IMG/VR virus record: IMGVR_UViG_3300025141_000149
Span: 1 to 50,741 of that record
DNA: 50,741 nucleotides
Direction: 5' to 3' (one strand)
Origin: a virus
Taxonomy: Duplodnaviria > Caudoviricetes
Part shown: piece after piece, positions 16,532-38,677 of the stretch
Layout: every line of letters starts with the position of its first letter
Position numbering within the stretch: position 1 is the first letter of the stretch
The notes under the pieces: generated by a model
Databases searched by the model: none
Seen by the model: only the letters and a program-made list of their open reading frames with translations
What the model was told of the DNA's origin: nothing
Program-made: the position numbers and the translations under genes

Positions 16532-16626
16532 TTTCTCTGGTATCTAATTGAAGTATTGTAAATGCCCATATCCAGTCATACTCATTAAAGAGAGCACCTT
16601 CCCAAATATTATACAAAATATACATT

Positions 16627-17985
16627 TTAAAATGGGATTTCATCTGTTTCTGCCTTTGTTAGTGGTGGTACAAATAGCTCATCTTCATTGTTATACATCT
16701 TACACTTATCTCCATCATATGCCATTTGTATTGATCCTGTTTCTCCGTACCTGACCTTTGCAGCTACAAGTACTAATTGATTCTTATTTTCTGGCTTCGC
16801 TGTTGCTGGTACTTTATATGGATAGTAAACAAAGAATACATTCTCCGCTACTTGTTCTATTGCACCTGATTCTGCGAGGTCAGATAGCTGTGGTTTTGGA
16901 TTCCCCCTCGTCTCCAAAGCTCTATTTAACTGGGATGCTAAAATTACAACACAGTTATACTCTTTTGCAATCCATTTATAGTCATTAACTATTCTTTCAA
17001 GCTGAAGTCTTCGTTGATCTTCCTTTCCTGTTGGAGTTATAAGTTGAATATAATCATCAAATATAACATCGGGTTTAAACTTCTTTATCTCTGTAGCTGA
17101 GGCTGGGAAGTCTCTTATCTGATCATACATACGGAAATGCTTAGGGTTATATTTCTTTGCAATATAATCACGGACTCTATCAAGCTCTTGTAATTGTTTC
17201 ATATCATATATACCTTGCCGTATCATTGTATATGAAAGTCTACCCGACTCCAAAGCTATTAGCTTTTTCAACACCTCAACATTTGTAAGTTCCCTATTGA
17301 ATAGTAAAACTTTTCTCTTTTCTGCCAAAATATTTGAGAGTAAATTTAGAAGCATTGTAGATTTACCATGTCCAGGCCGTCCACCTACTATAGTTATCTC
17401 TCCCCTCGTAAGACCACCTGCAAACTTATCAACATTAACAAATCCCGTTTTAACGAGTAGCTTGTCAGTATTTTGTATTGATTCTATTGCATCACCAAGA
17501 GCCTCATTAATATCAAAAGAGCTATCTGGCCTTAAACTTATAAGTTCACCAATGTTAGTATGTGCTGAGACAAGGACATCTAAGGCATCTATCTTATTGT
17601 CCATTGCCTTTTCTTCTATCTCTTTGGCTGACTCAATGACAAGACGTAGTAGATACTTCTCGTATATCTTCTTTGCATATACCTCTATCGTACTTTTACT
17701 GCCTGCTCCTTCTGTGCAATCTACAAGGAATACATTATTTACTCCCTGTATGTGATCTCCCTCATCAAGTGTTGAGGTAACAGTCATAAGATCAACATGC
17801 TCTCTTCTCCGTATCATCCCTGCAAGGACGTTCCACAGCACTTTACATCTGCTGTCGTACCACACCTCATCTGAGACTATATACTTCGCTATATCATTGA
17901 ATTTGGAAGGATACATAATAACAGCACCAACTACAGCAAGTTCTATCGTTGCATCATTAGGAAGTTCTTTATTACTTTTTGCCAT
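16627..17985 (-). CDS. dnaB: Replicative DnaB-family helicase
   Basis: N-terminal DnaB domain, GGRPGHGKST Walker A, FDDYIQL, ASQLNR, PQLSDLAESGAIEQ, KVRYGETG. Confidence 0.95.
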   Translation of the reverse strand: MAKSNKELPNDATIELAVVGAVIMYPSKFNDIAKYIVSDEVWYDSRCKVLWNVLAGMIRRREHVDLMTVTSTLDEGDHIQGVNNVFLVDCTEGAGSKSTIEVYAKKIYEKYLLRLVIESAKEIEEKAMDNKIDALDVLVSAHTNIGELISLRPDSSFDINEALGDAIESIQNTDKLLVKTGFVNVDKFAGGLTRGEITIVGGRPGHGKSTMLLNLLSNILAEKRKVLLFNRELTNVEVLKKLIALESGRLSYTMIRQGIYDMKQLQELDRVRDYIAKKYNPKHFRMYDQIRDFPASATEIKKFKPDVIFDDYIQLITPTGKEDQRRLQLERIVNDYKWIAKEYNCVVILASQLNRALETRGNPKPQLSDLAESGAIEQVAENVFFVYYPYKVPATAKPENKNQLVLVAAKVRYGETGSIQMAYDGDKCKMYNNEDELFVPPLTKAETDEIPF

Positions 17986-18893
17986 TAAAATAGTTCCTCC
18001 TGTGCTGTCTTGGTATTAATAAATCTAGCATACTCTTCGTTAAGCTCTATGCCTATCCACTTTCTGCCAAGCCTTTTAGCTACATTTGCTGTTGTACCGC
18101 TACCCATAAAAGGGTCTAATACCACATCTCCTTCTTTTGTTCCCGCCTTTATACATAGTTCTGGTATTTTTTCAGGGAATACAGCGAAGTGAGCTTCACC
18201 TGATTGTGCTGTGTTAATACTCCATACGCTACGTTTATTTCTATATTCCCCAGTTGGCTGCGAGTCAGCTGCCATACTATTAGCAAGGAGAACATCTCTT
18301 CTACTGTCTCCACGTGATGCTCTATTGTCACCTACATATACAGCTTTTTCCTGTATAGCTTTATAGTCAAAGTAGTATTTAGGTTTAAGTGACAAGAGAA
18401 ATATATACTCATGAGACTTAACACATCTATCCTTGACTGCTTCTGGCATGGGGTTTGGTTTATGCCATATTATATCTTGACGTAAATACCATCCATCTTT
18501 TTGAAGTGAGAATGCAAGCATCCAAGGGACACCTGTAAGGTCTTTTGTTTTTAAACGTGGATGTTTAGGTGGTGCTTTTCGTTGCATCCTATAGTTGCCA
18601 CCTGTAGCATCATTGGTAATAGAATTACCACCTTCCCAGTGACCACCCTTTGCACCGAAGTATGTATCTCCAATGTTCAGCCACAAAGTGCCATCATCTT
18701 TTAGTACACGTTTTGATTTATTAAACAGGGTTGTGAGGGTTCTTACAAAGTCTTCGGGTACAAGCTCCTCACCTAACTGCCCATCAGCATTGTAGTCTCT
18801 AAGACCCCAATACGGAGGAGAAGTTACTATAGCCTGTACTGACTTTTCTTTTATTTCGTCTATTTTTTCAAGACTGTTCCCAATCAGTAACAC
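17985..18893 (-). CDS. Orphan DNA amino-methyltransferase (beta class, N4-C/N6-A)
   Basis: TSPPY near the N-terminus, IIWHKPNPMP, HFAVFP, DPFMGSGTT near the C-terminus. Confidence 0.95.
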   Translation of the reverse strand: MLLIGNSLEKIDEIKEKSVQAIVTSPPYWGLRDYNADGQLGEELVPEDFVRTLTTLFNKSKRVLKDDGTLWLNIGDTYFGAKGGHWEGGNSITNDATGGNYRMQRKAPPKHPRLKTKDLTGVPWMLAFSLQKDGWYLRQDIIWHKPNPMPEAVKDRCVKSHEYIFLLSLKPKYYFDYKAIQEKAVYVGDNRASRGDSRRDVLLANSMAADSQPTGEYRNKRSVWSINTAQSGEAHFAVFPEKIPELCIKAGTKEGDVVLDPFMGSGTTANVAKRLGRKWIGIELNEEYARFINTKTAQEELF

Positions 18894-25280: not shown

Positions 25281-25285
25281 AAAAA

Positions 25286-25358
25286 ATAGGGGTGAGCCAG
25301 AAAGGCGTAGGATGAAATAACCTACAGCTGCTCAACGGCAGCATAAACCCACCCCTAT
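25286..25358 (-). ncRNA. Candidate four-way-junction structured RNA or terminator
   Basis: 9-bp closing stem enclosing three hairpins, followed on the - strand by a T-run and AGGAG. Confidence 0.45.
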
Positions 25359-25368
25359 ATATTATTGT

Positions 25369-25509
25369 TTACATGCCTGCTTTGATGAAGGCAAATACGA
25401 AGTACCATACGAGTATACAGCCTCCAAGCATACCCATCCATACCATAAACTTCCCTGCTAGTCCACCTGCTATTACAAGCACTTCAAATACATCATCTCT
25501 ATTCAGCAT
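25369..25509 (-). CDS. Small membrane protein (46 aa, not in ORF track)
   Basis: MLNRDDVFEVLVIAGGLAGKFMVWMGMLGGCILVWYFVFAFIKAGM; GGAGG upstream. Confidence 0.55.
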   Translation of the reverse strand: MLNRDDVFEVLVIAGGLAGKFMVWMGMLGGCILVWYFVFAFIKAGM

Positions 25510-26075
25510 ATTCTAAACCCTCCACTATTGGCACAGAAGTTTGCAAACTCACGTACATTATCTTCACTGAATGGATATGACTTTGCCCAATCATCCACCT
25601 TGCCTGTTCCATCACATTTATTACACTCCATATCTCCAGCACCAGTCTTTGGTGGCTCTTGTCTCTTACCAGTAGCTTCACATAGATCACAATCTAACTG
25701 TTCAAGTGAATCAAGTTCCTTTTTATACATTGATTCATAGGCTTTAACTTGGTCAGTTTCAATTAAGCGAAACAGTTCTTTTGCTATTCTCCCTGCTTTA
25801 GTCTTGCTTATCTTATGACCATCATTCCAGCTACCTTGCTCTATATCTTTTTCTGTAAGTATATTTTCACATGCTTTAACTACAAAGTGCCACAGTGGTC
25901 TCCACCACCATACATTATTTCTAAAGTATACACCACTGTTCTCTTGTTGCCACTCTTCATAGTCAGCATACATCTTCTTTTCTTCGTCAGACCAATCGTT
26001 CATTGTCTGGTATGGCGGTATCTCTGGTTGAGGTCTACTTATATTTGGATTAAGTCCTGATAAATCAAATCCCAT
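25503..26075 (-). CDS. Conserved-type phage protein with inserted DnaJ-like zinc finger
   Basis: YFRNNVWWWRPLW; CDLCEATG...CNKCDGTG; FCANSGGFRIC. Confidence 0.8.
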   Translation of the reverse strand: MGFDLSGLNPNISRPQPEIPPYQTMNDWSDEEKKMYADYEEWQQENSGVYFRNNVWWWRPLWHFVVKACENILTEKDIEQGSWNDGHKISKTKAGRIAKELFRLIETDQVKAYESMYKKELDSLEQLDCDLCEATGKRQEPPKTGAGDMECNKCDGTGKVDDWAKSYPFSEDNVREFANFCANSGGFRIC

Positions 26076-26317
26076 TACTTGTCTCCTTTCTGTTTATTGT
26101 CTAACATGTCTTGTAGTTCTCTTGATATTTGATACTCATACTCATCCCACTGCAGAAGCAGATTTCTTACAAACTCTACTTTCATTTCTCTGAGTAGTGT
26201 TATTCTATTGTCCTCAGATATATATGCAATGGTTAGCATTGATGTCTCACCTGCTATTATTTGTGGTACTTTTACTTCGTACCTCTTCATTACACCATCA
26301 TATTCAAACTGTGTCAT
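26075..26317 (-). CDS. Hypothetical protein
   Basis: 80 aa, GGAAGGG RBS, TAATG overlap. Confidence 0.7.
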   Translation of the reverse strand: MTQFEYDGVMKRYEVKVPQIIAGETSMLTIAYISEDNRITLLREMKVEFVRNLLLQWDEYEYQISRELQDMLDNKQKGDK

Positions 26318-26391
26318 ATTTATCCCTTCCTTATTTCTGTTACTATGTTTATTATTATCAGTGCAAAGATCACATAAGCTATTATATCCAT

Positions 26392-26637
26392 TTATGTATT
26401 CTCCATTGCTGTAAAGCTATCTCCAACAAGCTTACCAAGTAATGTGCTTGCCTTCTTAAACCCAGAACCACTTGTCTGCCATACTAAGAAGATGTCTCCT
26501 AGTTCTTCATCATGATGTCCTTCTACTTTTATACCAGATTCCCATCCACATGTATGACTTGATATACCTGTTGTCTTATGTCCTAATCTACTTACAGCTT
26601 TACCACCACCTTTGCATTCGGCTCTAAACTGTGCCAT
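26392..26637 (-). CDS. Hypothetical early protein (start MAQFRAE)
   Basis: AAAGGAGA RBS before the ATG at 26637; SRLGHK..GI..GW motif. Confidence 0.7.
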   Translation of the reverse strand: MAQFRAECKGGGKAVSRLGHKTTGISSHTCGWESGIKVEGHHDEELGDIFLVWQTSGSGFKKASTLLGKLVGDSFTAMENT

Positions 26638-27296
26638 ATTTGTTTCTCCTTTCTGTTTATTATTAGTCTCCTGTTTCCATTTCTTCAATCAAGCGTTTAC
26701 CAGATGTGGTTGCATTTGATAAAAACAGTCCAAGCTTTTTATTTCGGTGGTAGACACTTTCTTTAAAATACGTTTCAAAATGAGCTATTGCCTTACCTAT
26801 TACTATGCTCATTTCCTCATCATCATCCAAGTCAAACTTCCCTGAGTAGTCTACCCATCCATTTTTCCATTTTAGTTCTTTTATTTGTTCAGCAGTATAT
26901 TTTGAATGCTCTGACGGATTTACCTTATAACCCTGCTTATTAGGGTCATGACCTTCAGGCAATACTCTTATTTCAACTGACTGTTTATTTATATGAGTAT
27001 CTAAGGCTGTCTTTATTCTGCTTAACTCTCTTCTTAGTTCCACTATGTTTGTTTCTATCTTGTCCAACCTTTTACCCAGTGTTCCCTCCCCATGACATGT
27101 ACCACATCTGGCATCTCCATGACCACCTTTAGGAGGTTTTCCTGTTTTGGTTATTGGTTTACCCGTGCCATCACATTGATTACACTCTACTTCTAAATGT
27201 TTCTCAACAGACTTTAATCCCTTTTCAACCTCAGCTAATGTTCTTGGCTTTTCTTTTTGTTTCTCTACTAACTTCATTTGTTTCTCCTTTCTGTTT
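26638..27296. repeat. 21-bp direct repeat ATTTGTTTCTCCTTTCTGTTT flanking a zinc-finger gene
   Basis: Identical at 26638-26658 and 27276-27296; 14-bp core also at 26082-26095 and 29295-29308. Confidence 0.85.
26663..27277 (-). CDS. Coiled-coil protein with DnaJ-type zinc finger (start MKLVEK)
   Basis: CNQCDGTG...CGTCHGEG; RBS directly before the ATG at 27277. Confidence 0.75.
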   Translation of the reverse strand: MKLVEKQKEKPRTLAEVEKGLKSVEKHLEVECNQCDGTGKPITKTGKPPKGGHGDARCGTCHGEGTLGKRLDKIETNIVELRRELSRIKTALDTHINKQSVEIRVLPEGHDPNKQGYKVNPSEHSKYTAEQIKELKWKNGWVDYSGKFDLDDDEEMSIVIGKAIAHFETYFKESVYHRNKKLGLFLSNATTSGKRLIEEMETGD

Positions 27297-27576
27297 CTTT
27301 TGTCATTGTTGTTGGTTTTCGTGTCATCCACCTTGTTTCAATTGGTCGCTGTATATTTTCCGCTCTTTTCATATCAGTTATAGAATCTATTGTTCCTAAT
27401 TCCCTATCAATATACTTGTCACTCTCCTGGTCAACAGCTCTATTCTCTTTCTTGTCTCTGAGCACAGCTACAAGTTTAAAGTAGTTTACATCAAGTGTCT
27501 TACCTTGCTGTTCTTCAAACCCTTTAACAAATTCCACAAGTTTTTCAGTTGTATTAAATAACCACTTAGTTTTCAT
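27274..27576 (-). CDS. Hypothetical early protein
   Basis: AGGAG RBS, ATGA overlap. Confidence 0.65.
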   Translation of the reverse strand: MKTKWLFNTTEKLVEFVKGFEEQQGKTLDVNYFKLVAVLRDKKENRAVDQESDKYIDRELGTIDSITDMKRAENIQRPIETRWMTRKPTTMTKETERRNK

Positions 27577-27949
27577 GTGACAATACTCCTTTCATTGTAT
27601 CTGAGTGATATGCTGTAGTTATATTATCAATATATCTTGGCTGACACTCACTGTATGCATGTTTATCGCTTACATATCTTCTATCAAGTTCGTTAGCAAT
27701 TTCGTGTATCAGGCGTGAACTCAGATCATTGGTGTGGAATATCTCTTGAAAACCACGTCCATGATACACTCCAGCCCTAAAATAAGAGTGTTGGTTTATA
27801 ACTACTCTTTCCTGTATTGCTTGACACTCTTCCCAGTGATGACTTCTTTTCATCCCGACAGTCCACTTGGAATATCTTTTCCCTTTATAGATATTATTAT
27901 ATCTCTGTTTACATCCATGACACATGGCATCCGTATTATCTTCATTCAT
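27566..27949 (-). CDS. Hypothetical early protein
   Basis: 127 aa, CHGC motif, overlapping operon chain. Confidence 0.65.
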   Translation of the reverse strand: MNEDNTDAMCHGCKQRYNNIYKGKRYSKWTVGMKRSHHWEECQAIQERVVINQHSYFRAGVYHGRGFQEIFHTNDLSSRLIHEIANELDRRYVSDKHAYSECQPRYIDNITTAYHSDTMKGVLSHEN

Positions 27950-28124
27950 CTTTTTCCCTTTCTTCTGTTATTGTTTTTTCTGTTAACTCAAAGTTCCTGA
28001 GAAAGAACTCACAGCATTCCATCCATCCCTTGTTTACATCTCTGTCCCTGCTCACTACTCCATACTTGTTAAAGTCTTTCTCATTCTCCTGACAAAGTAT
28101 CAGTATTTCTTTTAGGCTACTCAT
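27942..28124 (-). CDS. Hypothetical early protein
   Basis: GAGG RBS; NKGWMECCEFFL. Confidence 0.6.
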   Translation of the reverse strand: MSSLKEILILCQENEKDFNKYGVVSRDRDVNKGWMECCEFFLRNFELTEKTITEEREKDE

Positions 28125-28127
28125 ATA

Positions 28128-28355
28128 TTAATACCTCTCTTCTTCTGGCCAAATATGTTCACCATGTTCTAACAGATGTTGATAACTATCTTTACGATAT
28201 GGATATTTACTGCTGTCGTTACTATTGTAACAGTCATCACAGTATATGCCTGTAAATATACCATAAACATCATATCTTGCCCACCAATGCTGACCTATTG
28301 GTCTATGCATTTCTTCTTCTGCTTTACAACCACGACAGTATATTTTATCTTTCAT
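28128..28355 (-). CDS. Small zinc-finger-like early protein
   Basis: CRGC...YCDDC; AGGAG RBS. Confidence 0.7.
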   Translation of the reverse strand: MKDKIYCRGCKAEEEMHRPIGQHWWARYDVYGIFTGIYCDDCYNSNDSSKYPYRKDSYQHLLEHGEHIWPEEERY

Positions 28356-28376
28356 ATTTATTTTCTCCTTTTTTAT

Positions 28377-28613
28377 TTATCCGTAAACGTCTGAGTAACA
28401 GTCTGGATGATACCATCCTTCAGGCATATCTACTGTATCTTCACCCTCACACATTGGTTCTTGACAGCATTCACAAGTAGTGTGGTCTGCCATACTCATT
28501 TTACATTCATCACATTTTTCTTCTAATTTCTTTTCTGCCTTGGTTAATACTCGTATGCTCCCCAGTTTACCAGTGCCAGTATTATCTGTTGGTAATGGTT
28601 CATTCTTATTCAT
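28377..28613 (-). CDS. Small Cys-rich early protein
   Basis: CDEC, CECC, HPDC; AGGAG RBS. Confidence 0.7.
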   Translation of the reverse strand: MNKNEPLPTDNTGTGKLGSIRVLTKAEKKLEEKCDECKMSMADHTTCECCQEPMCEGEDTVDMPEGWYHPDCYSDVYG

Positions 28614-28653
28614 GTTATTCTCCTTTCTATTTGATATGGAGTATCAGCTATTA

Positions 28654-28809
28654 TCATTCAGCCTCCTTTTCAATGCTAACTATTTCAAAGCTATCTTCAG
28701 CATAATCACTGGGCAGCTCCATATTCATCAAGTCTCTTGCTATCCAGTTATCATCTTTTGAATCATCATACTGATACTCAAGTTCTATTTTTATCCTTGC
28801 TATCTTCAT
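28654..28809 (-). CDS. Small acidic protein (51 aa, not in ORF track)
   Basis: ATGA overlap; MKIARIKIELEYQYDDSKDDNWIARDLMNMELPSDYAEDSFEIVSIEKEAE. Confidence 0.6.
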   Translation of the reverse strand: MKIARIKIELEYQYDDSKDDNWIARDLMNMELPSDYAEDSFEIVSIEKEAE

Positions 28810-29111
28810 ACCCATTCCCCTTTATTTAGCTGTTCCCATACATCTTTAGCCTTCATTGGTTCAAAGTATAGATCACGCTGTAGTCTTGGTTGCATGCTCT
28901 TCAGCTCTTCCATGCTGAATGAACCCATCTCAACAGCATGTCCTTTCACTATACCCCAGCAATAGTCTCCATCTTTGTCCATATTCATAAGAAACCACTT
29001 CCAGCCTCCCATAGCATCAAAATATTTAGCTACTACCATCTGCTCCATATCAGAGCCATCATCAAACTGCTTCTGTGCTTTCTCTTTTATTTCTTTAGTC
29101 ATTAGTTTCAT
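28806..29111 (-). CDS. DUF2958-like protein
   Basis: MKLMTKEI...VVAKYF..GGWKWF...WGIVKG..VEMGSFSMEEL...RDLYFEP. Confidence 0.8.
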   Translation of the reverse strand: MKLMTKEIKEKAQKQFDDGSDMEQMVVAKYFDAMGGWKWFLMNMDKDGDYCWGIVKGHAVEMGSFSMEELKSMQPRLQRDLYFEPMKAKDVWEQLNKGEWV

Positions 29112-29289
29112 TTTGTTCCCTTTCTGTTAGTGTGTAGTTTCTTGCTATTGTATTCCAAAATACATAGAAGGCTGTATATATTGGGAGTCTTTCTTCCTTG
29201 GGCATTGCCTGTATTACCTCACCAAAGTATTCTGTTGCCTCATCTATTGTATCTCTTTCTCCAAACAGTCCATGTATTTGCAGTTCCAT
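29095..29289 (-). CDS. Hypothetical early protein
   Basis: AAAGGAGA RBS; 64 aa. Confidence 0.65.
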   Translation of the reverse strand: MELQIHGLFGERDTIDEATEYFGEVIQAMPKEERLPIYTAFYVFWNTIARNYTLTEREQNETND

Positions 29290-29290
29290 T

Positions 29291-29476
29291 TTATTCTCCT
29301 TTCTGTTTTTTAGCCATTGCTATAGCCCTCTCAACAACTGTTGTATCTTGATTATGGTCTTTCATTTCTTGCAGTGCTTCTTCTGGTGTCATGCCAAAAT
29401 GCTCCATGAAATATATTAACATATCTACTCCTTTGAGTTGTACAGTTTCCCATTTACTCATCACAGTCCTCCCCAT
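29291..29476 (-). CDS. Hypothetical early protein (start possibly 29461)
   Basis: Operon chain; GGAGG precedes the inner GTG/ATG. Confidence 0.6.
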   Translation of the reverse strand: MGRTVMSKWETVQLKGVDMLIYFMEHFGMTPEEALQEMKDHNQDTTVVERAIAMAKKQKGE

Positions 29477-29687
29477 AACATATTGTATTTACAGTCTTTC
29501 TATCCATACCAGCATTATCAAGTACATCCCATGCCATATCTGGTATAATACCTTCTATTTCTTTTTCTGTCATATCATCTTCAACCCAGTTGTGTATGTC
29601 AAAGTCTGGAAGGTCTTGCATATGCATTCCAGTATTTTTAGATATGAACTCATTTAGTTTACTCCATGCTAATCCCTGTTTACTCAT
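29454..29687 (-). CDS. Acidic hypothetical early protein (start MSKQGL)
   Basis: AAAGGAAAGG RBS before the ATG at 29687. Confidence 0.65.
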   Translation of the reverse strand: MSKQGLAWSKLNEFISKNTGMHMQDLPDFDIHNWVEDDMTEKEIEGIIPDMAWDVLDNAGMDRKTVNTICYGEDCDE

Positions 29688-29727
29688 TTTGCCTTTCCTT
29701 TCCTTTTGTTTTGTTGTTATTAAATTT

Positions 29728-29766
29728 GTGTAAAGGCAGGGGAGTACCAAAAACCTGCCCTTACAC
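29728..29766 (-). other. Intergenic RNA hairpin
   Basis: GTGTAAGGGCAGG pairs with CCTGCCTTTACAC (13 bp, one G-U on the - strand); no U-tract. Confidence 0.55.
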
Positions 29767-29847
29767 TGTATAACACACAGCTTAAAAAAGTCCGTTCCAC
29801 TGTGTGCATTATCCTCCTGTCACTCAGGTCGAAGTGAGTGTTAGAGA

Positions 29848-30195
29848 TTACTTAGCTGCGAGAGATGGTAATACTTCTCCAGCTCCCATTTCTACCCATA
29901 TACTATCATGGAATGATACTCCATATACAGACTCAATTGCAGTTAGTACATTTCTACAACTCTCATCTATTTCTTCTGCATGTCCCCAACTATCATTTAC
30001 TGATGGGTCATCTCCAAATGGACACCACATTAACCAAGCTGTACCTTCCTCTTCGTCTCTGTCAGGAGATACTCCTGTGTTATCATACCATACACTCCAA
30101 TAAGAACTTGTAGTGCTGTCTGGTATCATTGTCTTTTGTAAGTGTACCCAATTATCTGGGAGTGTTATGTCTTTACTTATTGGTGATGCTGGCAT
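29848..30195 (-). CDS. Acidic early protein
   Basis: AGGAG RBS; about 20 D/E versus 5 K/R in 115 aa. Confidence 0.7.
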   Translation of the reverse strand: MPASPISKDITLPDNWVHLQKTMIPDSTTSSYWSVWYDNTGVSPDRDEEEGTAWLMWCPFGDDPSVNDSWGHAEEIDESCRNVLTAIESVYGVSFHDSIWVEMGAGEVLPSLAAK

Positions 30196-30377
30196 TATTC
30201 TGCTCCTTTCCCTTTATATCCATATTGTGCTAACCTTGCAGGTAGCACTACCTTCATATCACAATTATAACAACATTGACCACTTGCAACAGGCTCGGCA
30301 TTACATCCACCTTCCCAACCATAAGGATCAGGTGTTATCTCTTGCTTACATATTACACATTTACCACTGGTTTTCAT
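30195..30377 (-). CDS. Small zinc-finger-like early protein
   Basis: CVIC...GCNAEPV..GQCCYNCD..VVLPARL; GGGAG RBS. Confidence 0.75.
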   Translation of the reverse strand: MKTSGKCVICKQEITPDPYGWEGGCNAEPVASGQCCYNCDMKVVLPARLAQYGYKGKGAE

Positions 30378-30392
30378 CTTTACTCCCTTCTG

Positions 30393-30638
30393 TTATCTAT
30401 ATGGATTATTATTCATCAACTCTCTTATTTCAGGATAACAAACATCACAAATCAGAGCATCAATCATATATCTTTCTTTGTTTTGTATTGTTGGAAACTT
30501 GACAGCATTTAGTTTGTCATACCTTTTCTGTTTATTACAATGGTCGCATTTCCTTTCCTTTGGTGTACAGATATACTTTACTGTACCATTGAAAAGGATT
30601 TCTTCTTTCACATTAAAATCAGTTGTATTTATTTCCAT
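30393..30638 (-). CDS. Small zinc-finger-like early protein
   Basis: CDHC...CDVC; AAGGAAAGG RBS. Confidence 0.65.
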   Translation of the reverse strand: MEINTTDFNVKEEILFNGTVKYICTPKERKCDHCNKQKRYDKLNAVKFPTIQNKERYMIDALICDVCYPEIRELMNNNPYR

Positions 30639-30691
30639 TTGCCTTTCCTTTCCTTTTAGTAATTATTTACAGCAAAAATCAAATAATAATA

Positions 30692-30731
30692 ACAACAAAA
30701 AACCCCCACTAAAATTAATTAGTGGAGGTTT
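30692..30731 (-). terminator. Rho-independent terminator
   Basis: AAACCTCCACTAA/TTAGTGGGGGTTT stem followed by a T-run on the - strand, just after the 30755 gene. Confidence 0.75.
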
Positions 30732-30754
30732 ACTGTTTTTTTTACTTGGCTAAT

Positions 30755-31177
30755 TTACTTGGTTTTTGTTTCCGCAAACTTCTTTCCGTTCCAAGTATGA
30801 ACTACACCGCCAATTTGAATATATTCACCTACTTGTGAATTTTTCCCTTCCGCATAAATCTTTAGTTCATTTATGCTACATGGGTTATTCATTGTTAAGG
30901 TTTTGCCACTTTCCGCATGAGTTACTTCTACACTTTCATCAAGTGGAAACAATAACCTTTCACCGTTTATTGTTTGAACTTCACTCTTTTTTGTCCGAGT
31001 GTTTGTCTTAACAATTTGAGTTCCACTAATATCCATAAAGTTATTAGGATATTTTTCCCTCAAATATTCTTTACAAACATCATAAAGTTCATTGGCTATT
31101 TGTTTCCCCAAAGAAACATTTCCAGAGGTTGCTGGTTTTCTTGTTTTATCTTGTCCTAACATATCGTATAGATTCAT
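30755..31177 (-). CDS. Hypothetical protein, first gene of the - arm (start MNLYDML)
   Basis: AAAAGGA RBS before the ATG at 31177; has its own terminator. Confidence 0.7.
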   Translation of the reverse strand: MNLYDMLGQDKTRKPATSGNVSLGKQIANELYDVCKEYLREKYPNNFMDISGTQIVKTNTRTKKSEVQTINGERLLFPLDESVEVTHAESGKTLTMNNPCSINELKIYAEGKNSQVGEYIQIGGVVHTWNGKKFAETKTK

Positions 31178-31329
31178 GATATTCCTTTTATTTATTATTA
31201 TTAAGTGACTTTCCATAATTAAGATAGTTTCCCCTCGGTCTTTCCTTAATTATCCCTATTTTCAAAGAGCAACTATCCAATAAATACCCCATCCAATGAA
31301 AGTAATGTAAAAACATACATATGAGAAAA

Positions 31330-31410
31330 ACAAGAACTATTTTAAATTATTTTACATTTAAATAATAATTGTTGTGTATATGGTCAATAGTATTATATTA
31401 CTCATGTTAA
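31330..31410. promoter_or_regulatory. AT-rich divergent promoter region
   Basis: Lies between divergent genes; TTGTGT-N16-TATATT on + and TTGACC-N17-TATTTA on -; weak matches. Confidence 0.4.
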
Positions 31411-31440
31411 TTATTAATGATAAATAAGAAAGGTAATAAA

Positions 31441-31590
31441 ATGAAAATAAAAGAACAACCTACTATATATAATGATGAAGTAAGTAAATGCGGTATAATG
31501 TTAAATGTTAAGGGTGAAATGTATATTATAAGGGATGGTAAAAAAATGCGGTTAAATGCATTCATAATAAAAGAAAGGAAAGGTAATTAA
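31441..31590 (+). CDS. Small hypothetical protein (49 aa, not in ORF track)
   Basis: AAGAAAGGT RBS; MKIKEQPTIYNDEVSKCGIMLNVKGEMYIIRDGKKMRLNAFIIKERKGN. Confidence 0.6.
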   Translation: MKIKEQPTIYNDEVSKCGIMLNVKGEMYIIRDGKKMRLNAFIIKERKGN

Positions 31591-31591
31591 T

Positions 31592-31933
31592 ATGGAAAAT
31601 GAATTATATATCTTATTTTTAGAGAATAGATTGAAAGAAGTAAAGTTATTACATACAAATGAAGTAGATGAAGTTGATAAGTTAAAAGCGGAGAATGAAC
31701 AACTCACTCAAACCATTAAATATAGTAATGGAAACGATGGTTTATATGATGAAATAGTAGAAAGCAATGAATACCTTGAAGATCAAATAAAAGATCTAAA
31801 AGCGGAACTCTCCAAATTTCAAAGCGGTAATGCAAAGGAATATGTGGACAAGTTAAAAGCGGATAATGTTAAATTGTTTAAGAAGTTAAATGATGCTAAC
31901 AAACAAATAATAGCGGAACGAGTTAATAGATAA
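31592..31933 (+). CDS. Coiled-coil protein
   Basis: AAAGGAAAGGT RBS; heptad pattern with repeated LKA(E/D). Confidence 0.75.
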   Translation: MENELYILFLENRLKEVKLLHTNEVDEVDKLKAENEQLTQTIKYSNGNDGLYDEIVESNEYLEDQIKDLKAELSKFQSGNAKEYVDKLKADNVKLFKKLNDANKQIIAERVNR

Positions 31934-32047
31934 CTCATGATTATAGGTGCGTATGATATGGCTATTATATTGTTGCGTGTATATAAGGTAAGCAAAGCCA
32001 CTCATGCAATAACATAAGCCATTACAATATCCGTACATAATAACATT

Positions 32048-32078
32048 AACCCCGCTTGTATTGGCGGGGGTTTTGTTT
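32048..32078 (+). terminator. Rho-independent terminator
   Basis: CCCCGCT/GGCGGGG stem followed by GTTTTGTTT. Confidence 0.8.
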
Positions 32079-32279
32079 ATGCTATGCAATGGCGTTGCCT
32101 TTCCTCAAATATGCGGAGAAATTCATCTAAAATTATAATTAAACCTAAAAAACAATGTAATCCGACCTCCTACGAGGACATTTCAACGGGGGTGGGTAGA
32201 TAAATAAACCCTCACACTCATTCTAATGTAATTTTTCAAAATTTTCAACTTTTGTGTCTTCTGACACACATTCTACAGC

Positions 32280-32340
32280 AATATATTATTATAAAGGAAC
32301 TTTATTATATATTATGTATTATATATTATATTATATATTA
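32280..32340. repeat. AT-rich array of ATATATTA repeats
   Basis: Copies start at 32281, 32307, 32321 and 32333. Confidence 0.7.
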
Positions 32341-32359
32341 TAAGGAATTTTACAGGAAT

Positions 32360-32394
32360 TTGCAAATTAATCACAAACTGATGTATATTACCAC
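32360..32394 (+). promoter_or_regulatory. Late promoter, probably giving a leaderless mRNA
   Basis: TTGCAA-N18-TATATT ends 5 nt before the ATG; no SD. Confidence 0.55.
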
Positions 32395-33159
32395 ATGGAT
32401 TTCAAAGAAATAAAAAACACAAAACATTACCTGTATGACAATGAGCAAGAATTTGCTGTATACTTCCCCGATGGGGTTGTTCGCCATAACTGGCGTCACG
32501 GAGATGAGGGAGAATGGGTTTATACAGATGATGGCTTTGTGTGTCAAATCCTGCGTAAATCAAAAATAAAGGAGAAAAATCGGTCTGTAACATGTGTTCG
32601 TACTGTTTGTGGTACATATCTTGCAAGAGACAAAAAGAAAGAGATGCTTGGCGAAGATGGTATTGCAGAGAACATTTACACATTTTCTGGCACAAACGTT
32701 AGCCAGAGGGCTTTCAATGAAAGAGGTCGTAATTCTAGAGAGCTTTTGTTTGCTAAGTACGTTGCTGGTGGTCTAGGTGCTGTTGAAGCTTACAAGAGGG
32801 CGTATCCAGATGCAAGGAGTTCAAACTATATAAAAGCTCGGACTGATAAACTTCTAAAAACGGAGACAATTAGAAAAATGATAGACAAGCAAATAGAAGA
32901 AATTCTAAATGAAGAGGGTGTTACACCTAATTGGCTGATTGAGAGATACAAAACAATTGCTGATTTAGCTGAAAATGATAATGCAAAACTTAGGTCGCTT
33001 GATAGCTTATCAAAGATTGCAGGTTTATTTGACCTTGGAGAGAAAAAATCAGAGCAAGTAACAATTTGGGCGGGTTTTTCGCCTGAGCAGCTAGAAGGAG
33101 TTAAAAAACATGGAGAACCAGAACTCATCGCACATGCAGAAAAAGCCACAGACGACTAA
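32395..33159 (+). CDS. terS: Terminase small subunit with N-terminal extra domain
   Basis: FAKYVAGG..AVEAYKRAY...KLRSLDSLSKIAGLF; first late gene, upstream of terL. Confidence 0.7.
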   Translation: MDFKEIKNTKHYLYDNEQEFAVYFPDGVVRHNWRHGDEGEWVYTDDGFVCQILRKSKIKEKNRSVTCVRTVCGTYLARDKKKEMLGEDGIAENIYTFSGTNVSQRAFNERGRNSRELLFAKYVAGGLGAVEAYKRAYPDARSSNYIKARTDKLLKTETIRKMIDKQIEEILNEEGVTPNWLIERYKTIADLAENDNAKLRSLDSLSKIAGLFDLGEKKSEQVTIWAGFSPEQLEGVKKHGEPELIAHAEKATDD

Positions 33160-33358
33160 AAAAAGGGAAACTGTTGATCCTTGTCCAATTTGTAGCAAGG
33201 AATTACACTTAAATAGCGAATTTACTCAAAGAGTTGGTCTTATTGGTGACTTTGATGATGTTATAGGCTGGATGTGTCCCCATTGTAGCTCTGAGTTTGA
33301 TGTTGATGACCATTTAACAAAATTTTTAGGTGAAGGTAACATAAGGGGAGAGGCATAA
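33110..33358 (+). CDS. Zinc-ribbon protein
   Basis: CPIC...WMCPHC; AAGGAG RBS. Confidence 0.7.
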   Translation: MENQNSSHMQKKPQTTKKRETVDPCPICSKELHLNSEFTQRVGLIGDFDDVIGWMCPHCSSEFDVDDHLTKFLGEGNIRGEA

Positions 33359-33747
33359 TGCCATATTTCGGTAAAAAATCTAAGGAGAGACTAAATACTT
33401 GTGACAGTAAGTTGCAAAAAGTATTTAATGAAGTGATTAAGCACGTTGATTGCTCGGTGCTGGAGGGTCATAGGGAAAAGGATAGACAAAATAAGCTGTA
33501 TGAAGAGGGAAAGACGAAGGTAAAGTATCCAAATGGGCGACATAATCGTCAGCCTTCTTCCGCTGTTGATGTTACGCCCTATCCTGTTGACTGGAAGGAT
33601 CGAGAGAGGCAAACACTGTTTGCTGGTTTTGTTATTGGCGTTGCTAGTCAGATGAACATTAACTTACGCTGGGGCGGTGACTGGGATCAGGACTTTCAAG
33701 TTGTAGACAACCGCTTCGATGACTTTCCTCATTTTGAACTGAAGTGA
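33358..33747 (+). CDS. Endolysin, L-alanyl-D-glutamate peptidase (M15)
   Basis: EGHR...QNKLY..G, RHN..S.AVD, RWGGDW, DFPHFEL. Confidence 0.9.
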   Translation: MPYFGKKSKERLNTCDSKLQKVFNEVIKHVDCSVLEGHREKDRQNKLYEEGKTKVKYPNGRHNRQPSSAVDVTPYPVDWKDRERQTLFAGFVIGVASQMNINLRWGGDWDQDFQVVDNRFDDFPHFELK

Positions 33748-33884
33748 CAAAAAGGGATGCTGCTCGTTTACTCAACCTGTTTGTGGGGCTTTACAACCTC
33801 TACTTATGGCATATAGGCGGTGCATTATTCATATTCATACTCGGATGTTTAAATATAGGAGCTTATGTATTTGGTAAGAAGTGA
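33744..33884 (+). CDS. Two-TM small membrane protein, holin candidate (46 aa, not in ORF track)
   Basis: GTGA overlap with the endolysin; LLNLFVGLYNLYLWHIGGALFIFILGCLNIGAYVFGKK. Confidence 0.55.
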   Translation: MTKRDAARLLNLFVGLYNLYLWHIGGALFIFILGCLNIGAYVFGKK

Positions 33885-34123
33885 GTCTTATAACAACTAT
33901 ATATCTCTGTTTAGTTGCTGGCTTTTTAGCTCTAGAGGTAGACAGGGAAAAACCGAAGCCTTATCCGCTTGGTACTACAGGAGACACTTTAATGGTTAGA
34001 ATCGTAGGATATGGATTTTGCCCCCAATATTGCAATGTAGATCACTTTCACATTGGACATTTTAAAAATTACGACTGTGAAGAGGGTGTATGTACACATA
34101 TAACAATAAACGATGAAGAGTGA
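33881..34123 (+). CDS. Signal/TM-anchored Cys/His-rich small protein
   Basis: Hydrophobic N-terminus; CPQYCNVDHFHIGH. Confidence 0.6.
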   Translation: MSLITTIYLCLVAGFLALEVDREKPKPYPLGTTGDTLMVRIVGYGFCPQYCNVDHFHIGHFKNYDCEEGVCTHITINDEE

Positions 34124-34259
34124 TTTAGGAAAACTTATAGTGTTTGTATGGATGTCTATTACAGTCTACTTCATGTTTTGTATGTGGGCAGACCTAAAAT
34201 ATATGACTGACCTCATACATGCCTATATTTCATTGACAATGGAGCACATTAGAAACTAA
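34113..34259 (+). CDS. Small single-TM protein (48 aa, not in ORF track)
   Basis: MKSDLGKLIVFVWMSITVYFMFCMWADLK...; stop abuts the terL start. Confidence 0.5.
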   Translation: MKSDLGKLIVFVWMSITVYFMFCMWADLKYMTDLIHAYISLTMEHIRN

Positions 34260-35822
34260 TTGGCTAATTTAAACCTACATGGCGATATAAGTGAAAATGA
34301 GCAGCTTCTTGCCAATGCCCATAATGATTTAATATTATTCGGTAAACTTTTCTCTCCTCAAGACTTCCTCGCTTCTACAACACCTGATTTTCATGTAGAG
34401 GTGGGGAAGTTACTTTTAAATAAGAAAATACAGCAGTTAGGGCTAGTATTACCACGTGACCATGCTAAATCTACCTTGGCATCAACTGCAATCTTGCATC
34501 GTTTCTTATTCGCAGAGAAAGATAAGCCTGAATTTATCGCCTGGATTGGAGAAGCACAAGATCAGGCAATTGATAACTTAAACTGGGTTATGAGCCATAT
34601 TGAGCTAAATCCAGCTATACATTACTACTTTGGAGACCTCCAAGGGAACAAATGGACAAAAGCCGAGTTTACCCTCACAAATGGCTGTAGAATGATTGCA
34701 AAGGGTGCAAATCAGCGTTTAAGGGGTAAAAAGCAACTTTCGACTAGATTTACAGGAATGGTGCTTGATGACTTCGAGTCAGAGCTAAATACGAAAACAC
34801 CCGATGCAAGACAGCAAATCAAGAACTGGGTTACAGCAGCTGTGTTTCCAGCAATCGACTTCGATAAGGATGGCTTTCTTTGGTGTAATGGTACTATCGT
34901 TCACTGGGATTCTTTCTTAAACGGACTCGTTACGGGTTGGAGGGATGCTCGCAAGAGTGGGGAAGCATATTCTTGGGAAGTCTACACCAAAAAAGCAATT
35001 GAAGATGGTGCATCTATTTGGCCATCTCGCTGGCCATTATCGAAATTAGAAGATCGTAAGCAGTTTTACATTGATAGTGGCACTCCTGCTAAGTTCTATC
35101 AGGAGTATATGAATCAAGCAAAATCACCAGAAGATCAGATTTTTGCTGAGGAAGATATTAACGAAGCACTTTACAGGGGGAATATTAGATTTGAAGAAGC
35201 GTCAGATAGCTGGTACATTAAATTTGATGACGGACACACTGAGTATGTTAACATATATATTGGTGTCGATCCCGCTTCAACTGTTGCTAGCAGGAATGAT
35301 TATAGTGTCATCATGGTTCTTGGTGTCACTTCAGAGTATGATTACTATGTTATTGAGTATTGGCGTGAGCGAGTCCTCCCAATGGAATGTGCTGACAAGA
35401 TTTTTGAGATACTTAAAAGGTATAACCCTGTTAGAAGGGTAAATATAGAAACTATTGCATATCAGGAAATGCTTAGAGACTATGTTCAAAAGCGTAGTAA
35501 AAAAGAGGGGCTTTTCGTTCCAGGCATTGAACAGGGTATTAAAGGGTATACCCAGAAGAAAAAAGACAGATTATTTGAAGGATTGCAACCAATGTTCAAA
35601 GCTGGGGCTGTACATCTTAAAAAACTACATCATGAGTTTATTGGCGAGCTGCTTGATTTTCCAAAAGGTTCACATGATGACACAATTGACGCTTTTTGGC
35701 TAGCAACACAGTATGCTAAGGGAAATCCCAAGGCAGGTAAGAAAAATAAAGATAAACAGAAAGATGGTACTTATCTTAAAGCACGTAAGGCATATAATTG
35801 GATAACAGGCAAACGCACATGA
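34260..35822 (+). CDS. terL: Terminase large subunit
   Basis: LPRDHAKST Walker A variant, VLDDFE Walker B, FYQEYMN, IGVDPA, HDDTIDA nuclease motifs. Confidence 0.95.
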   Translation: MANLNLHGDISENEQLLANAHNDLILFGKLFSPQDFLASTTPDFHVEVGKLLLNKKIQQLGLVLPRDHAKSTLASTAILHRFLFAEKDKPEFIAWIGEAQDQAIDNLNWVMSHIELNPAIHYYFGDLQGNKWTKAEFTLTNGCRMIAKGANQRLRGKKQLSTRFTGMVLDDFESELNTKTPDARQQIKNWVTAAVFPAIDFDKDGFLWCNGTIVHWDSFLNGLVTGWRDARKSGEAYSWEVYTKKAIEDGASIWPSRWPLSKLEDRKQFYIDSGTPAKFYQEYMNQAKSPEDQIFAEEDINEALYRGNIRFEEASDSWYIKFDDGHTEYVNIYIGVDPASTVASRNDYSVIMVLGVTSEYDYYVIEYWRERVLPMECADKIFEILKRYNPVRRVNIETIAYQEMLRDYVQKRSKKEGLFVPGIEQGIKGYTQKKKDRLFEGLQPMFKAGAVHLKKLHHEFIGELLDFPKGSHDDTIDAFWLATQYAKGNPKAGKKNKDKQKDGTYLKARKAYNWITGKRT

Positions 35823-35823
35823 T

Positions 35824-35859
35824 TTGCACTTAACACTAATTTTACAGTAAATTTACTAT
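35824..35859 (+). promoter_or_regulatory. Promoter, probably leaderless, for the portal operon
   Basis: TTGCAC-N17-TAAATT ends 7 nt before the ATG; no SD. Confidence 0.55.
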
Positions 35860-37893
35860 ATGATAGAACAAGATAAAAGAGCAGAAGAGATAAAAGAGCG
35901 GTATCAACGATGGTTTGATGCCCGTAAAGCTTGGGATGAGCAGGCGAGAGAAGACATAGATTTCTATCTCGGCAATCATTTTACAGATGAAGAGGCAAAC
36001 GAGCTTGCTGAGAGAAATCAAATGGGTTTACCCATTGATAGACTGTATGCAGCCATCGAGCAGTTTAAAGCAATTATCACTTCTAAGCCCCCAAAATTTT
36101 CTGCCGTTGGCAGAGAGGATTCTGATGTTAGGCTTGCTAATGTTTGGAAGACTATTTTAGAGTACATATGGGATAATTCTGATGGTGACGAAGTATTTAA
36201 GCAGGTAGTTCATGATTACTCTGTAGCTGGCCTTGGTTACTTTTATGCATATATAGACCCTGAAGATGATTATGGTAGGGGCGAGGTTAAGTTTACCTAT
36301 GTCGATCCGTTTCGTGTCGTTGTTGACCCTAATAGTAGAAGTAAGTGGTTTGATGATGCGTCAGGCATGCAGCTCTCTACAATACTTACAAAACAGCAAC
36401 TTTTAGATGCATATCCTATGCTTGTTGCTCCAGATGAAAATGGAGACACGCTTATTGACAATATTGAAGGATTATCCATTCAGGATGAAGATTATCCATC
36501 TTCCAACAAAAGACAGCAGGGAACAGCATTTACCCCTGATATTGTCAAAGATTATGATTGGGAAAATACTGGAGAGAAGTATAGAATTATAGAAGACTTT
36601 AGAAAAGTCAAAATGCCATTTTTCCGTGTTATTGATCTTCGTAGTGGCCAAGAGAAAGTTTTGGACAATAGTGGGCTTGAAAAGCTTTTAGCGGATGAAA
36701 GAACTGCTGAGGCTTTTGATAAAGGGCTTTTTGATATTGTGCAAGTACAGCAGACAAGAATACAATGTACATGTATTGTCGGACAGGTCATTTTATATGA
36801 AAAAGTCCTTGATACAAATGTATTCCCATTAGTACCCGTACCAAACATTTGGACAAATACTCCTTATCCAATGAGTGATGTCCGTAAGAACAAGGGATTT
36901 CAGAGGTTCTTAAATAAAGTAATGTCTTTAATTACATCGCATGCACAGGCATCGTCAGGCTTGAAGTTGCTAATACCACAGGGTTCTGTACAAGATATAG
37001 AAGAACTGGAACGTGATTGGGCGAATCCCAATGCAACGATTGAATATGACGCTTCATTTGGAGAACCTCACTTTCCCTCTCCACAACCACTCGCTGGATC
37101 AATATTACAGCTACCTCAGATGGTGGAACATTATATTGACTTAAACATTGGAATATTTGAGATGCAGCAGGGAAATACTGAGGTAGCTCCAAGAACATCA
37201 TCTGGAACAATGATGATGGAAGATTTCGGACAAAGACGTAGTAAAAGTAAATTAAGAGATGTTGAGGCAAGTTTAAAACGACTAGGCAAAGTCTGCTATC
37301 ATTTAGCTAAGTCACATTACAGTTTCCAAAAGACATTTAGAATAGTACAGCCCAATAACGATATTAATGAATACACAGTAAATAAGAAGCTTTATGACGA
37401 TAAGACACAAGAGCTTATGACAATTGAAAACAACTTATCTGTTGGTTCATTTGATATACGTGTTATTGGCAATTCCACTATGCCATCTAATAAATGGGGT
37501 GAATGGAATGTATATATGGAAGCCTTCCAAGCAGGTTTAATTGATAAAGTGGAAGCATTAAAGAAAACAGAAATATTTGATAAAGCTGGTGTACTTCAAA
37601 GAACAGATCAAGTTGCACAATTGCAGGCACAATTACAACAAGCTCAAGAGCAAATTAAGAGTCTTAGTGGTGACCTTCAAACTGCAAATCGTGCAGAAGT
37701 ACAATCACGCAAAAGAACTGAAGTTGAAAAATTCAAGGGTAAGCTCAAAGAGCAAGAGTACGACTCTAAAACCCAAAATAAAGTTTCTATTGATAAATTA
37801 TCTAATGCGGTCAAACTCGAATCAGAGAAATTACGTTTAGTGACAGATGTGGAGAAGAAACGTAGTCAGGCTCGTAAATCCGAGAAATCGTGA
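35860..37893 (+). CDS. Portal protein (P22-like)
   Basis: AREDIDFYLGNHF, VVVDPNS, FPLVP, QRFLNK; long C-terminal coiled-coil barrel; follows terL. Confidence 0.9.
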   Translation: MIEQDKRAEEIKERYQRWFDARKAWDEQAREDIDFYLGNHFTDEEANELAERNQMGLPIDRLYAAIEQFKAIITSKPPKFSAVGREDSDVRLANVWKTILEYIWDNSDGDEVFKQVVHDYSVAGLGYFYAYIDPEDDYGRGEVKFTYVDPFRVVVDPNSRSKWFDDASGMQLSTILTKQQLLDAYPMLVAPDENGDTLIDNIEGLSIQDEDYPSSNKRQQGTAFTPDIVKDYDWENTGEKYRIIEDFRKVKMPFFRVIDLRSGQEKVLDNSGLEKLLADERTAEAFDKGLFDIVQVQQTRIQCTCIVGQVILYEKVLDTNVFPLVPVPNIWTNTPYPMSDVRKNKGFQRFLNKVMSLITSHAQASSGLKLLIPQGSVQDIEELERDWANPNATIEYDASFGEPHFPSPQPLAGSILQLPQMVEHYIDLNIGIFEMQQGNTEVAPRTSSGTMMMEDFGQRRSKSKLRDVEASLKRLGKVCYHLAKSHYSFQKTFRIVQPNNDINEYTVNKKLYDDKTQELMTIENNLSVGSFDIRVIGNSTMPSNKWGEWNVYMEAFQAGLIDKVEALKKTEIFDKAGVLQRTDQVAQLQAQLQQAQEQIKSLSGDLQTANRAEVQSRKRTEVEKFKGKLKEQEYDSKTQNKVSIDKLSNAVKLESEKLRLVTDVEKKRSQARKSEKS

Positions 37894-37911
37894 ATATAAA
37901 GGAATGAAACA

Positions 37912-38649: not shown

Positions 38650-38677
38650 CTTAAACAAATAAACGGAGGTCATAATA

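Follow-up and report, generated by a model that had tools for sequence, protein, structure and literature searches.

A CAG/CTG-free gene cassette upstream of terS accompanies a predicted N4-cytosine methylase gene in a family of uncultured phages

The virus record IMGVR_UViG_3300025141_000149 of IMG/VR (Duplodnaviria; Caudoviricetes) was analyzed over its complete length of 50,741 bp, referred to here as the window and, in comparisons with relatives, as genome G000. Just upstream of the terminase gene terS lies a small gene cassette from which the trinucleotides CAG and CTG (jointly CWG throughout) are almost entirely missing, and the same genome encodes a predicted DNA methylase whose gene is coupled to this CWG-depleted island within the phage family. 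The plus strand carries, from 31417 onward, terS, an endolysin-like gene, TerL, portal and structural genes, continuing across the record ends to 15442. The minus strand, from 31216 to 15439, carries ParB-N, HNH, PD-(D/E)XK nuclease, Sak, methyltransferase, DnaB and Holliday-junction resolvase genes. The two arms meet at the island, a divergent pair or trio of genes with outward terminators at both ends (Table 1). Such a divergent unit had been described in a first-pass annotation made from the sequence alone, and terminator-like sites in the outward orientation are indeed present on both sides of it. The point at which CWG resumes, 32261, falls within a promoter-like hexamer 134 bp 5' of terS.

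Table 1. Coordinates of the island, the elements within and around it, and other genes discussed in the text.
Feature	Position	Strand	Remarks
CWG-depleted island	30734..32260	.	2 sites in 1527 bp
Intrinsic-terminator-like hairpin and T-run, end of leftward unit	30700..30731	-	CTG at 30733 (distal island edge) abuts the hairpin
Leftward gene, 140 aa, 'family A'	30755..31177	-	alternative start 31216; holds both residual CWG sites
AT-rich divergent intergenic region	31178..31416	.	partly kept in relatives; presumed to hold the two units' promoters
Small ORF, 57 aa, 'family B'	31417..31590	+	recurs in islands of 7 relatives
Acidic (pI 4.9) coiled-coil ORF, 113 aa	31592..31933	+	weak sub-cutoff coiled-coil Pfam matches
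Terminator-like hairpin, end of rightward unit	32050..32069	+	
Conserved noncoding stretch, CWG-free, ~190 bp	32084..32260	.	G-run element, core ~32170-32255
terS upstream region	32261..32394	+	CWG returns at 32261, 32276, 32353, 32378; promoter-like site 32261-32289
terS	32395..33159	+	phrog_51 match; anchor for finding relatives
TerL	start 34260	+	phrog_38 match
DnaB-like helicase	16627..17985	-	adjoins methylase; in relatives with and without island
N6_N4 DNA methyltransferase	17985..18893	-	PF01555, E 4.2e-55; motif IV SPPY
HNH endonuclease	24898-25266	-	phrog_99, E 4e-17; no homologue in 14 relatives compared

The window holds 1515 CWG sites, i.e., 29.9 per kb or about one per 33 bp. Within 30734-32260 they occur only at 31123 and 31132, the two exact positions given in the first-pass annotation for 30736-32260, and the flanking sites are those at 30733 and 32261. 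Ranked over the window, the longest CWG gap is 31132-32261, with 1129 bp, followed by 30733-31123, with 390 bp; the third measures 229 bp, so that no gap of comparable length exists elsewhere in the genome. The expected number, initially put at well over ten, came out at 17 to 21 by two routes. A first-order Markov model built on the island's own dinucleotides predicts 20.8 sites in 30736-32260 against the 2 observed, and 5000 simulations (mean 20.9, minimum 6) never reached two or fewer. Codon resampling of the three island ORFs with genome-wide synonymous usage gave 17.2 +/- 2.6 CWG, with 0 of 5000 runs at or below the observed 2. The depletion was significant even when each ORF's own codons were permuted, which lowers the expectation to 6.3 (P = 0.0034). 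When the longest gap was multiplied by density for all strand-symmetric 3-, 4- and 5-mers, CWG alone exceeded 17 in the window, with a value of 33.7. The desert is thus confirmed as real and specific to CWG.

Its imprint on codon choice is equally clear. At junctions of an NCx codon with a following G (NCx/G), the third base in the window's island ORFs is G in 7 cases, A in 1, T in 1 and C in none, against T 412, A 353, G 32 and C 31 in 24 reference genes. All 12 Gln codons of the island, including the five of the 31592 ORF, are CAA, compared with CAA 246 : CAG 143 in the reference genes. These counts agree with the bias noticed at first sight, namely GCG for Ala before Glu or Asp and exclusive CAA in the 31592 ORF. 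The GC content of the island is 30% vs 37%, and CCG/CGG occurs 21 times vs about 6 expected at rest-of-genome density. A contig from another sample that is 99.2% identical to the window (L002) has both gaps; it differs from the window in 71 places, not one of which brings back a CWG. About 40 of these differences cluster at 31866-31992, a segment that takes in the 3' end of the 113-aa ORF and runs a little past it; this patch is CWG-free in both versions and looks like a small recombination mosaic.

A TerS search of viral contigs returned 72 related loci, 32 of them evaluable, i.e., with at least 1.5 kb upstream of terS. Defined as 700 bp or more without CWG, ending no more than 800 bp from terS, the island was found in 21 of these 32 relatives, at lengths of 774-2172 bp and TerS identities to the window of 48-100%. 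Eight methylase-less relatives, described below, lack such an island. In relatives with whole genomes, the CWG gap once more stands out as the sole extreme outlier among all words, in each case immediately upstream of terS. Island interiors are mostly unalignable between relatives, with recurrent small gene families comprising the 140-aa leftward gene, proteins of ~50 and ~60 aa and coiled-coil proteins; family A proteins share 25-35% identity between lineages, and it is these deeply diverged family A genes that are all CWG-free. The distal island edge coincides with the intrinsic terminator of the leftward unit in G000, G001, G004 and G002, and residual CWG in relatives is confined to the distal leftward gene. 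A conserved role for the two residual sites of the window was considered and rejected, as the relatives' residual sites lie on non-homologous codons.

In the pooled islands of seven methylase carriers (9.7 kb), CWG was counted 3 times against 181.5 expected, with CCG/CGG enriched 5-fold and GCG/CGC 3.8-fold. Across the pooled island ORFs, the third base at NCx/G junctions is G 55, C 16, A 5 and T 2 times, and Gln is encoded by CAA 87 : CAG 2. An excess of CSG follows from this route, because a synonymous escape from NCW/G to NCS/G must yield CSG; it amounts to ~66 sites against ~178 missing CWG sites, or about one third. CWG is missing in both orientations, from genes on both strands and from noncoding DNA, and the constraint therefore acts on duplex DNA and not on mRNA. 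Since the islands share little sequence yet stay CWG-free through synonymous replacements, the removal of CWG is due to ongoing selection, not inheritance.

The lower GC content, the CCG/CGG excess and the gene content that varies between relatives would also be expected of a cassette imported from a CWG-poor donor, or of an artefact (sequencing or assembly error, or hypermutation of CWG to CSG). We regard this explanation as very improbable. Independent assemblies from other samples agree, the conserved noncoding part is CWG-free as well, and so are the deeply diverged family A genes, while a terminator stands at the boundary in four genomes. Moreover, the CSG excess stems from synonymous changes and makes up for no more than about one in three missing sites, and GC falls rather than rises. 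Sequencing or assembly artefact and local CWG-to-CSG editing were rejected on the gaps of L002, the 21 of 32 relatives and the one-third CSG excess.

The methylase of the window carries motif IV as TSPPYW at residues 24-29 and the S-adenosylmethionine (AdoMet)-binding motif DPFMGSGTT near the C-terminus. Its relatives found in the PDB include M.PvuII, CcrM, TTHA0409 and a DNA cytosine-N4 methyltransferase. The SPPY form of motif IV is typical of N4-cytosine enzymes, and by these features the protein is likely to be a methylase of the N4-cytosine kind, beta class.

The occurrence of the island follows that of this gene. Among genomes in which both could be evaluated, the island is present in ten of ten carriers (G000, G001, G002, G003, G004, G012, G013, G014, G016 and G027) and in none of eight non-carriers (G006-G010 and G018-G020), all of which retain the DnaB neighbourhood of the methylase site. 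No ORF of G006-G010 contains a (D/N/S)PP(Y/F/W) or C5-methylase motif. In carriers, successive 500-bp bins upstream from terS hold about 5, 0, 0 and 1 CWG, after which the density is at or above the genome mean. Left out of the comparison of ten with eight were G011 and G017, which have the methylase and only 657 and 371 bp upstream of terS, G015, which has the methylase and no terS on the contig, and the fragments G005 and G021-G026 without the DnaB neighbourhood, where islands are seen in G022 and G023 and none in G021.

In a gene-by-gene comparison of window genes of 100 aa or more, the methylase alone occurred in all carriers and in no non-carrier. In a maximum-likelihood tree of TerL and portal, carriers and non-carriers are interspersed, and at least three changes of state are required by well-supported branches. 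The methylase gene appears as a clean local indel between conserved flanking genes, in G002 vs G008, G006, G010 and G007, and also in G013 vs G019/G020. Because the indel is local and the terS-proximal region differs separately, ~10 kb away, the co-variation is not due to the swap of a single block. The island is thus coupled to the methylase gene within the phage family. Among the three explanations offered by the first-pass annotation, that of a region which must stay unmodified by the phage methylase draws the strongest comparative support from these contrasts and independent changes.

The same comparison bears on another of those explanations, a zone free of primase sites. In this view the phage DnaB would recruit host DnaG, whose priming at CTG would have to be avoided on both strands of the zone. 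In favour, DnaB is present as had been claimed, CTG and its complement are both absent, and a scan of 20 early-arm ORFs, a subset of all ORFs, turned up no primase; the claimed lack of one holds for those 20. Yet DnaB (47-57% identity), Sak, the PD-(D/E)XK nuclease and the structural genes are common to carriers and non-carriers, and the eight non-carriers have no CWG-free island. Some words purged in non-carriers, e.g., AGCT, do not even contain CTG. A primase-site desert is therefore disfavoured and, in our view, hardly credible.

To delimit the association, 67 loci of at least 6 kb were taken from the 80 best methylase relatives, with up to +/-10 kb around each gene. CWG gaps occurred only in members of the same phage family, and the link is therefore restricted to this family, whose methylases are at least 53% identical. 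GATC was considered as the methylase target and rejected, being absent (0) from the methylase-bearing genomes G002, G003 and G011-G014 and from non-carriers.

Several further features were seen around the methylase genes. A 70-aa ORF at 18868-19080 (minus strand) overlaps the methylase start, with homologues in five carriers and no non-carrier, and may be a co-transferred partner or a spurious frame. G015 (L109) carries at 15529-18010 a C5-cytosine methylase-like ORF with PCQAFS and ENV motifs beside its copy of the N4-type methylase. Two contigs with a methylase relative have gaps for other words: G011 (L107) lacks GCA/TGC over 845 bp at 7931-8776 (normalised value 19.6), and L159 lacks CTA/TAG over 656 bp at 9790-10446 (25.8). 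They could reflect either chance or deserts of the same kind for other words.

In non-carriers, the 4-8 kb of the early arm next to terS hold CWG at about half the average density of the genome, an effect restricted to that side of the gene. Individual words are purged there more severely: near terS, CAGC/GCTG was observed once vs 31 expected in G007, CAGG/CCTG twice in G010 (43 expected) and twice in G019 (28 expected), and AGCT not at all in G009 (23 expected), while GCAGC is absent over ~12 kb upstream of terS in G019/G020. Overall, zones free of a single 4- or 5-mer that is frequent in the rest of the genome, 3-6 kb long (12 kb for GCAGC) and directly upstream of terS, were found in G007, G008, G009, G010, G019/G020 and G001, and look like the same phenomenon in the form of ordinary host-restriction avoidance. 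G001 is a carrier, and its 4.4-kb zone lacks AGCT, a word beyond the protection of a CWG methylase. Restriction pressure is also evident genome-wide. CCGG, CGCG, GCGC, GGWCC and GCSGC are all at 0 in the 50.7 kb of the window. GATC occurs 91 times in the window and is present in G001, G004 and G015, but is at 0 in 11 other relatives, where five methylase-less genomes pooled would be expected to hold ~650. The missing short words are strong classical restriction avoidance, in a pattern that differs by lineage.

Further from terS, the two groups diverge in the opposite direction. Between 2.2 and 6 kb from terS, the observed/expected ratio (O/E) of CWG, given local composition, is 1.57-1.96 in nine of ten carriers, against genome-wide values of 1.16-1.46, and 1.07 in the tenth, G012; in all eight non-carriers it is 0.78-1.14. 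Together with the purge, these data indicate that the methylase goes with relief, even reversal, of CWG avoidance in most of the early arm, and also with the total removal of CWG from its first 0.7-2.1 kb. As non-carriers deplete CWG-type words too, a host factor that reads unmethylated CWG-type words is involved.

This raises the possibility that the island is classical restriction avoidance at the leading end: host nucleases would read unmethylated CWG or words containing it, the first-entering cassette, exposed ahead of any counter-measure, would have to lack such sites, and the methylase would be a second, independent adaptation to these hosts with harmless marks. The zones of non-carriers purged of CAGC/GCTG, CAGG/CCTG, GCAGC or AGCT match the island in position and polarity, the carrier G001 has its AGCT-free zone there too, the general restriction pressure described above fits, and T5, T7 and Murciavirus provide a published precedent (PMC12455610). 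However, virion DNA methylated at CWG would be protected in the cassette as well, which makes a total purge needless. Avoidance of this kind also predicts the island in methylase-less phages, and the reverse was found. Finally, carriers purge every CWG context, a breadth of three bases, whereas non-carriers purge single 4-mers. On balance we consider this alternative unlikely, though it has to be taken seriously.

The depletion is polar. It begins just upstream of terS and extends only into the early arm, with normal CWG density on the terS side. Just past the island, the early arm at ~26500-30700 has 36-39 CWG per kb vs the window average of 30. From this layout the cassette is probably the last DNA to be packaged and the first to enter the next cell. 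The first-pass suggestion of a first-entering segment gains from the polarity, from the stop at the terminator and from the 4-mer-free zones at the same place in non-carriers. Its companion, a terminally redundant segment, drew no support from the sequencing data, which comprise 24 runs in the form of Logan contigs only; four of them, compared with 25000-39000, gave short fragments with one depth figure per contig and no points at which molecules start or stop.

We hypothesize, with a probability of roughly 0.4, that the methylase marks CWG genome-wide and that the first-entering, immediate-early cassette is kept mark-free against methylation-dependent restriction, which joins the first-entry and unmodified-region explanations. 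The cassette would be an insulated immediate-early unit with divergent promoters and a terminator at each end, placed at the terS-proximal end of the early arm. Hosts would attack CWG-containing words, and phages without the methylase would thin those words in the DNA that is exposed first and longest. In carriers, the methylase would N4-methylate the cytosine of CWG, a target that we infer from genome statistics, at about one site per 33 bp outside the cassette. The CWG marks would shield the genome from host nucleases reading CWG-containing words, and thinning would no longer be needed. In the very first DNA to enter, the marks would instead be a liability, and all possible sites would have been removed there; the mark-free cassette would then escape a putative Type IV-like restriction until its own products act. 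Such a two-tier design, in which a CWG N4-methylase serves as a dense, broad shield and a methylation-free first-entry cassette supplies the proteins that then disarm restriction, is conceivable and is put forward with some reserve.

The methylase coupling would also fit if unmethylated DNA were needed for reasons other than defence, with dense N4 marks disturbing the host RNA polymerase, a DNA-binding regulator, or terminase and end recognition. The cassette would then be kept site-free because it has to be expressed from a fully methylated incoming genome and adjoins the packaging site. The CWG-free zone consists of two complete transcription units and a conserved noncoding element before terS, and a methylation-controlled packaging site is known in phage P1 (mentioned in PMC8919816). 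Against such a need, the adjacent early operon must also be expressed from incoming DNA, yet is CWG-rich with an O/E of up to 1.96, and the purge is even across coding sequence instead of affecting promoters or a compact site alone. We also know of no reported transcription block by N4-methylcytosine. We judge this alternative rather improbable. The mark-free first-entry reading is placed above both this need and plain restriction avoidance because the breadth of the purge fits a 3-base target and not a host site of 4-5 bases, and because the island goes with the presence of the methylase, the opposite of what classical avoidance predicts.

Several observations weigh against the mark-free first-entry reading. 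The host factor for unmethylated CWG-type words is certainly involved and might even account for everything. Over 4 kb in the non-carrier G010, CWG density drops to about a quarter of that genome's mean, so that the contrast between the two groups is one of complete-and-short vs partial-and-long depletion rather than all-or-none, and G019 and G020 are near-duplicates, which reduces the eight non-carriers to about seven independent genomes. A whole-genome scan of Salicola phage CGphi29, which has a methylase homologue, found no CWG gap, and the methylase homologues of 41-51% identity, widespread in bacteria and phages and scattered across many phyla in the species genomes, carry no specificity label and point to no host. 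As for the anti-defence role that the cassette proteins would play, searches of Pfam and PHROG placed them in no family, anti-restriction or other, with only sub-threshold coiled-coil matches, and an AlphaFold model of the 140-aa protein (pLDDT 65.7) had no Foldseek match at E <= 0.001 in the PDB or BFVD. A word-based homology search with the cassette proteins recovered only nameless copies at 65-95% identity, and an ESM Atlas search with a cassette protein gave a best score of 0.75, which is a lead only.

The conserved noncoding stretch at 32084-32260 deserves separate mention. Its G-run element, located past the rightward terminator and ahead of the terS promoter region, is shared by one group of relatives; another group, which includes G002 and its methylase-less siblings, has a different upstream layout that is likewise conserved but unrelated. 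The element could serve as a packaging or end site, or else as a regulatory RNA. An Rfam search in and beside the island found no RNA family, the best hit being CrcZ at 13.9 bits vs a cutoff of 95, i.e., at chance level. Elsewhere in the early arm, the HNH gene is possibly a homing endonuclease. ORFs open at the 5' and 3' ends were seen at both record ends (1-308 and 50093-50741); because the record starts and stops inside ORFs, it is a linear record cut within the structural module, and not at a natural end. Among 50,697 deposited phage records, neither a near nor a distant DNA relative of 30000-33500 was found, and TerL is less than 28% identical to that of any cultured phage. Host clues were likewise absent, with no tRNA genes in the window and no TerL relative in 185,579 species genomes.

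Experiments have demonstrated position-dependent site avoidance in first-injected DNA for no more than a few cultured phages. The signal described here is much stronger, with a 3-base word gone from 1-2 kb and codon choice bent to that end, in an abundant uncultured marine phage family, and the island switches on and off with a single gene. The case is also a warning that genome-wide motif-avoidance tests miss the strongest signals. If the proposed reading is true, word deserts would offer a sequence-only route to the target word of orphan phage methylases, including those of uncultured phages, and would also reveal the entry polarity of phage genomes. The small cassette proteins would be candidate inhibitors of methylation-dependent or CWG-reading defences, and self-modification would have a cost that phages manage through genome zoning.

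The enzyme resembles the orphan or self-protective beta-class methyltransferases of phages (PF01555) in its SPPY and DPFMGSGTT motifs and in the position of its gene in the early/replication module. It differs from them in that its CWG target is deduced from genome statistics only, and no member with a 3-base CWG specificity is known to us. A limited literature search revealed neither a CWG-specific methylase nor a phage that avoids its own methylation sites in one zone; in the main text of marine methylome papers, no CAG, CTG, CWG, CAGC, GCWGC or GCAGC motif appears, and CCWGG is reported in viral bins.

At the pac site of phage P1, cutting depends on the methylation of clustered Dam sites. 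The window is similar in that a phage methylase, its presumed sites and a terminase-adjacent region are linked, and unlike P1 in that the sites are absent over 1-2 kb instead of clustered, with four CWG in the 134 bp before terS. Early inhibitors are also found in phages with modified cytosines, namely T4 Arn against McrBC and IPI* against GmrSD. As in those phages, a cytosine modification would call for an early answer to Type IV restriction, which the cassette would house; the cassette proteins, however, showed no sequence or fold likeness to any such inhibitor in the searches above, and a modification-free DNA zone is not part of those systems.

The closest parallels are phages with sub-genomic avoidance in first-injected DNA. 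This is established for the first-step-transfer DNA of T5, which has no EcoRI sites, and more recently for Murciavirus (Autographiviridae) facing the Mme2I Type I system; in some phages, restriction motifs have an effect in the first-injected region alone (PMC12455610). As the authors argue, selection is concentrated on the leading, variable, anti-defence-rich region and is not expected for headful packagers (PMC12455610). Like T5, the leading end of T7 (gene 0.3) and Murciavirus, the window lacks a word in one block of variable early genes and carries it frequently elsewhere. In those phages the block lies at a genome end and precedes counter-defence, and the polarity and terminator edge of the island would fit stepwise entry. 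Unlike in those phages, the missing word has only three bases and occurs at 30 per kb elsewhere, the purge reshapes codon usage, and the feature, known here from sequence alone, is conserved across a whole uncultured family and co-varies with a phage methylase. This link suggests that the phage avoids its own marks rather than the sites of a host enzyme.

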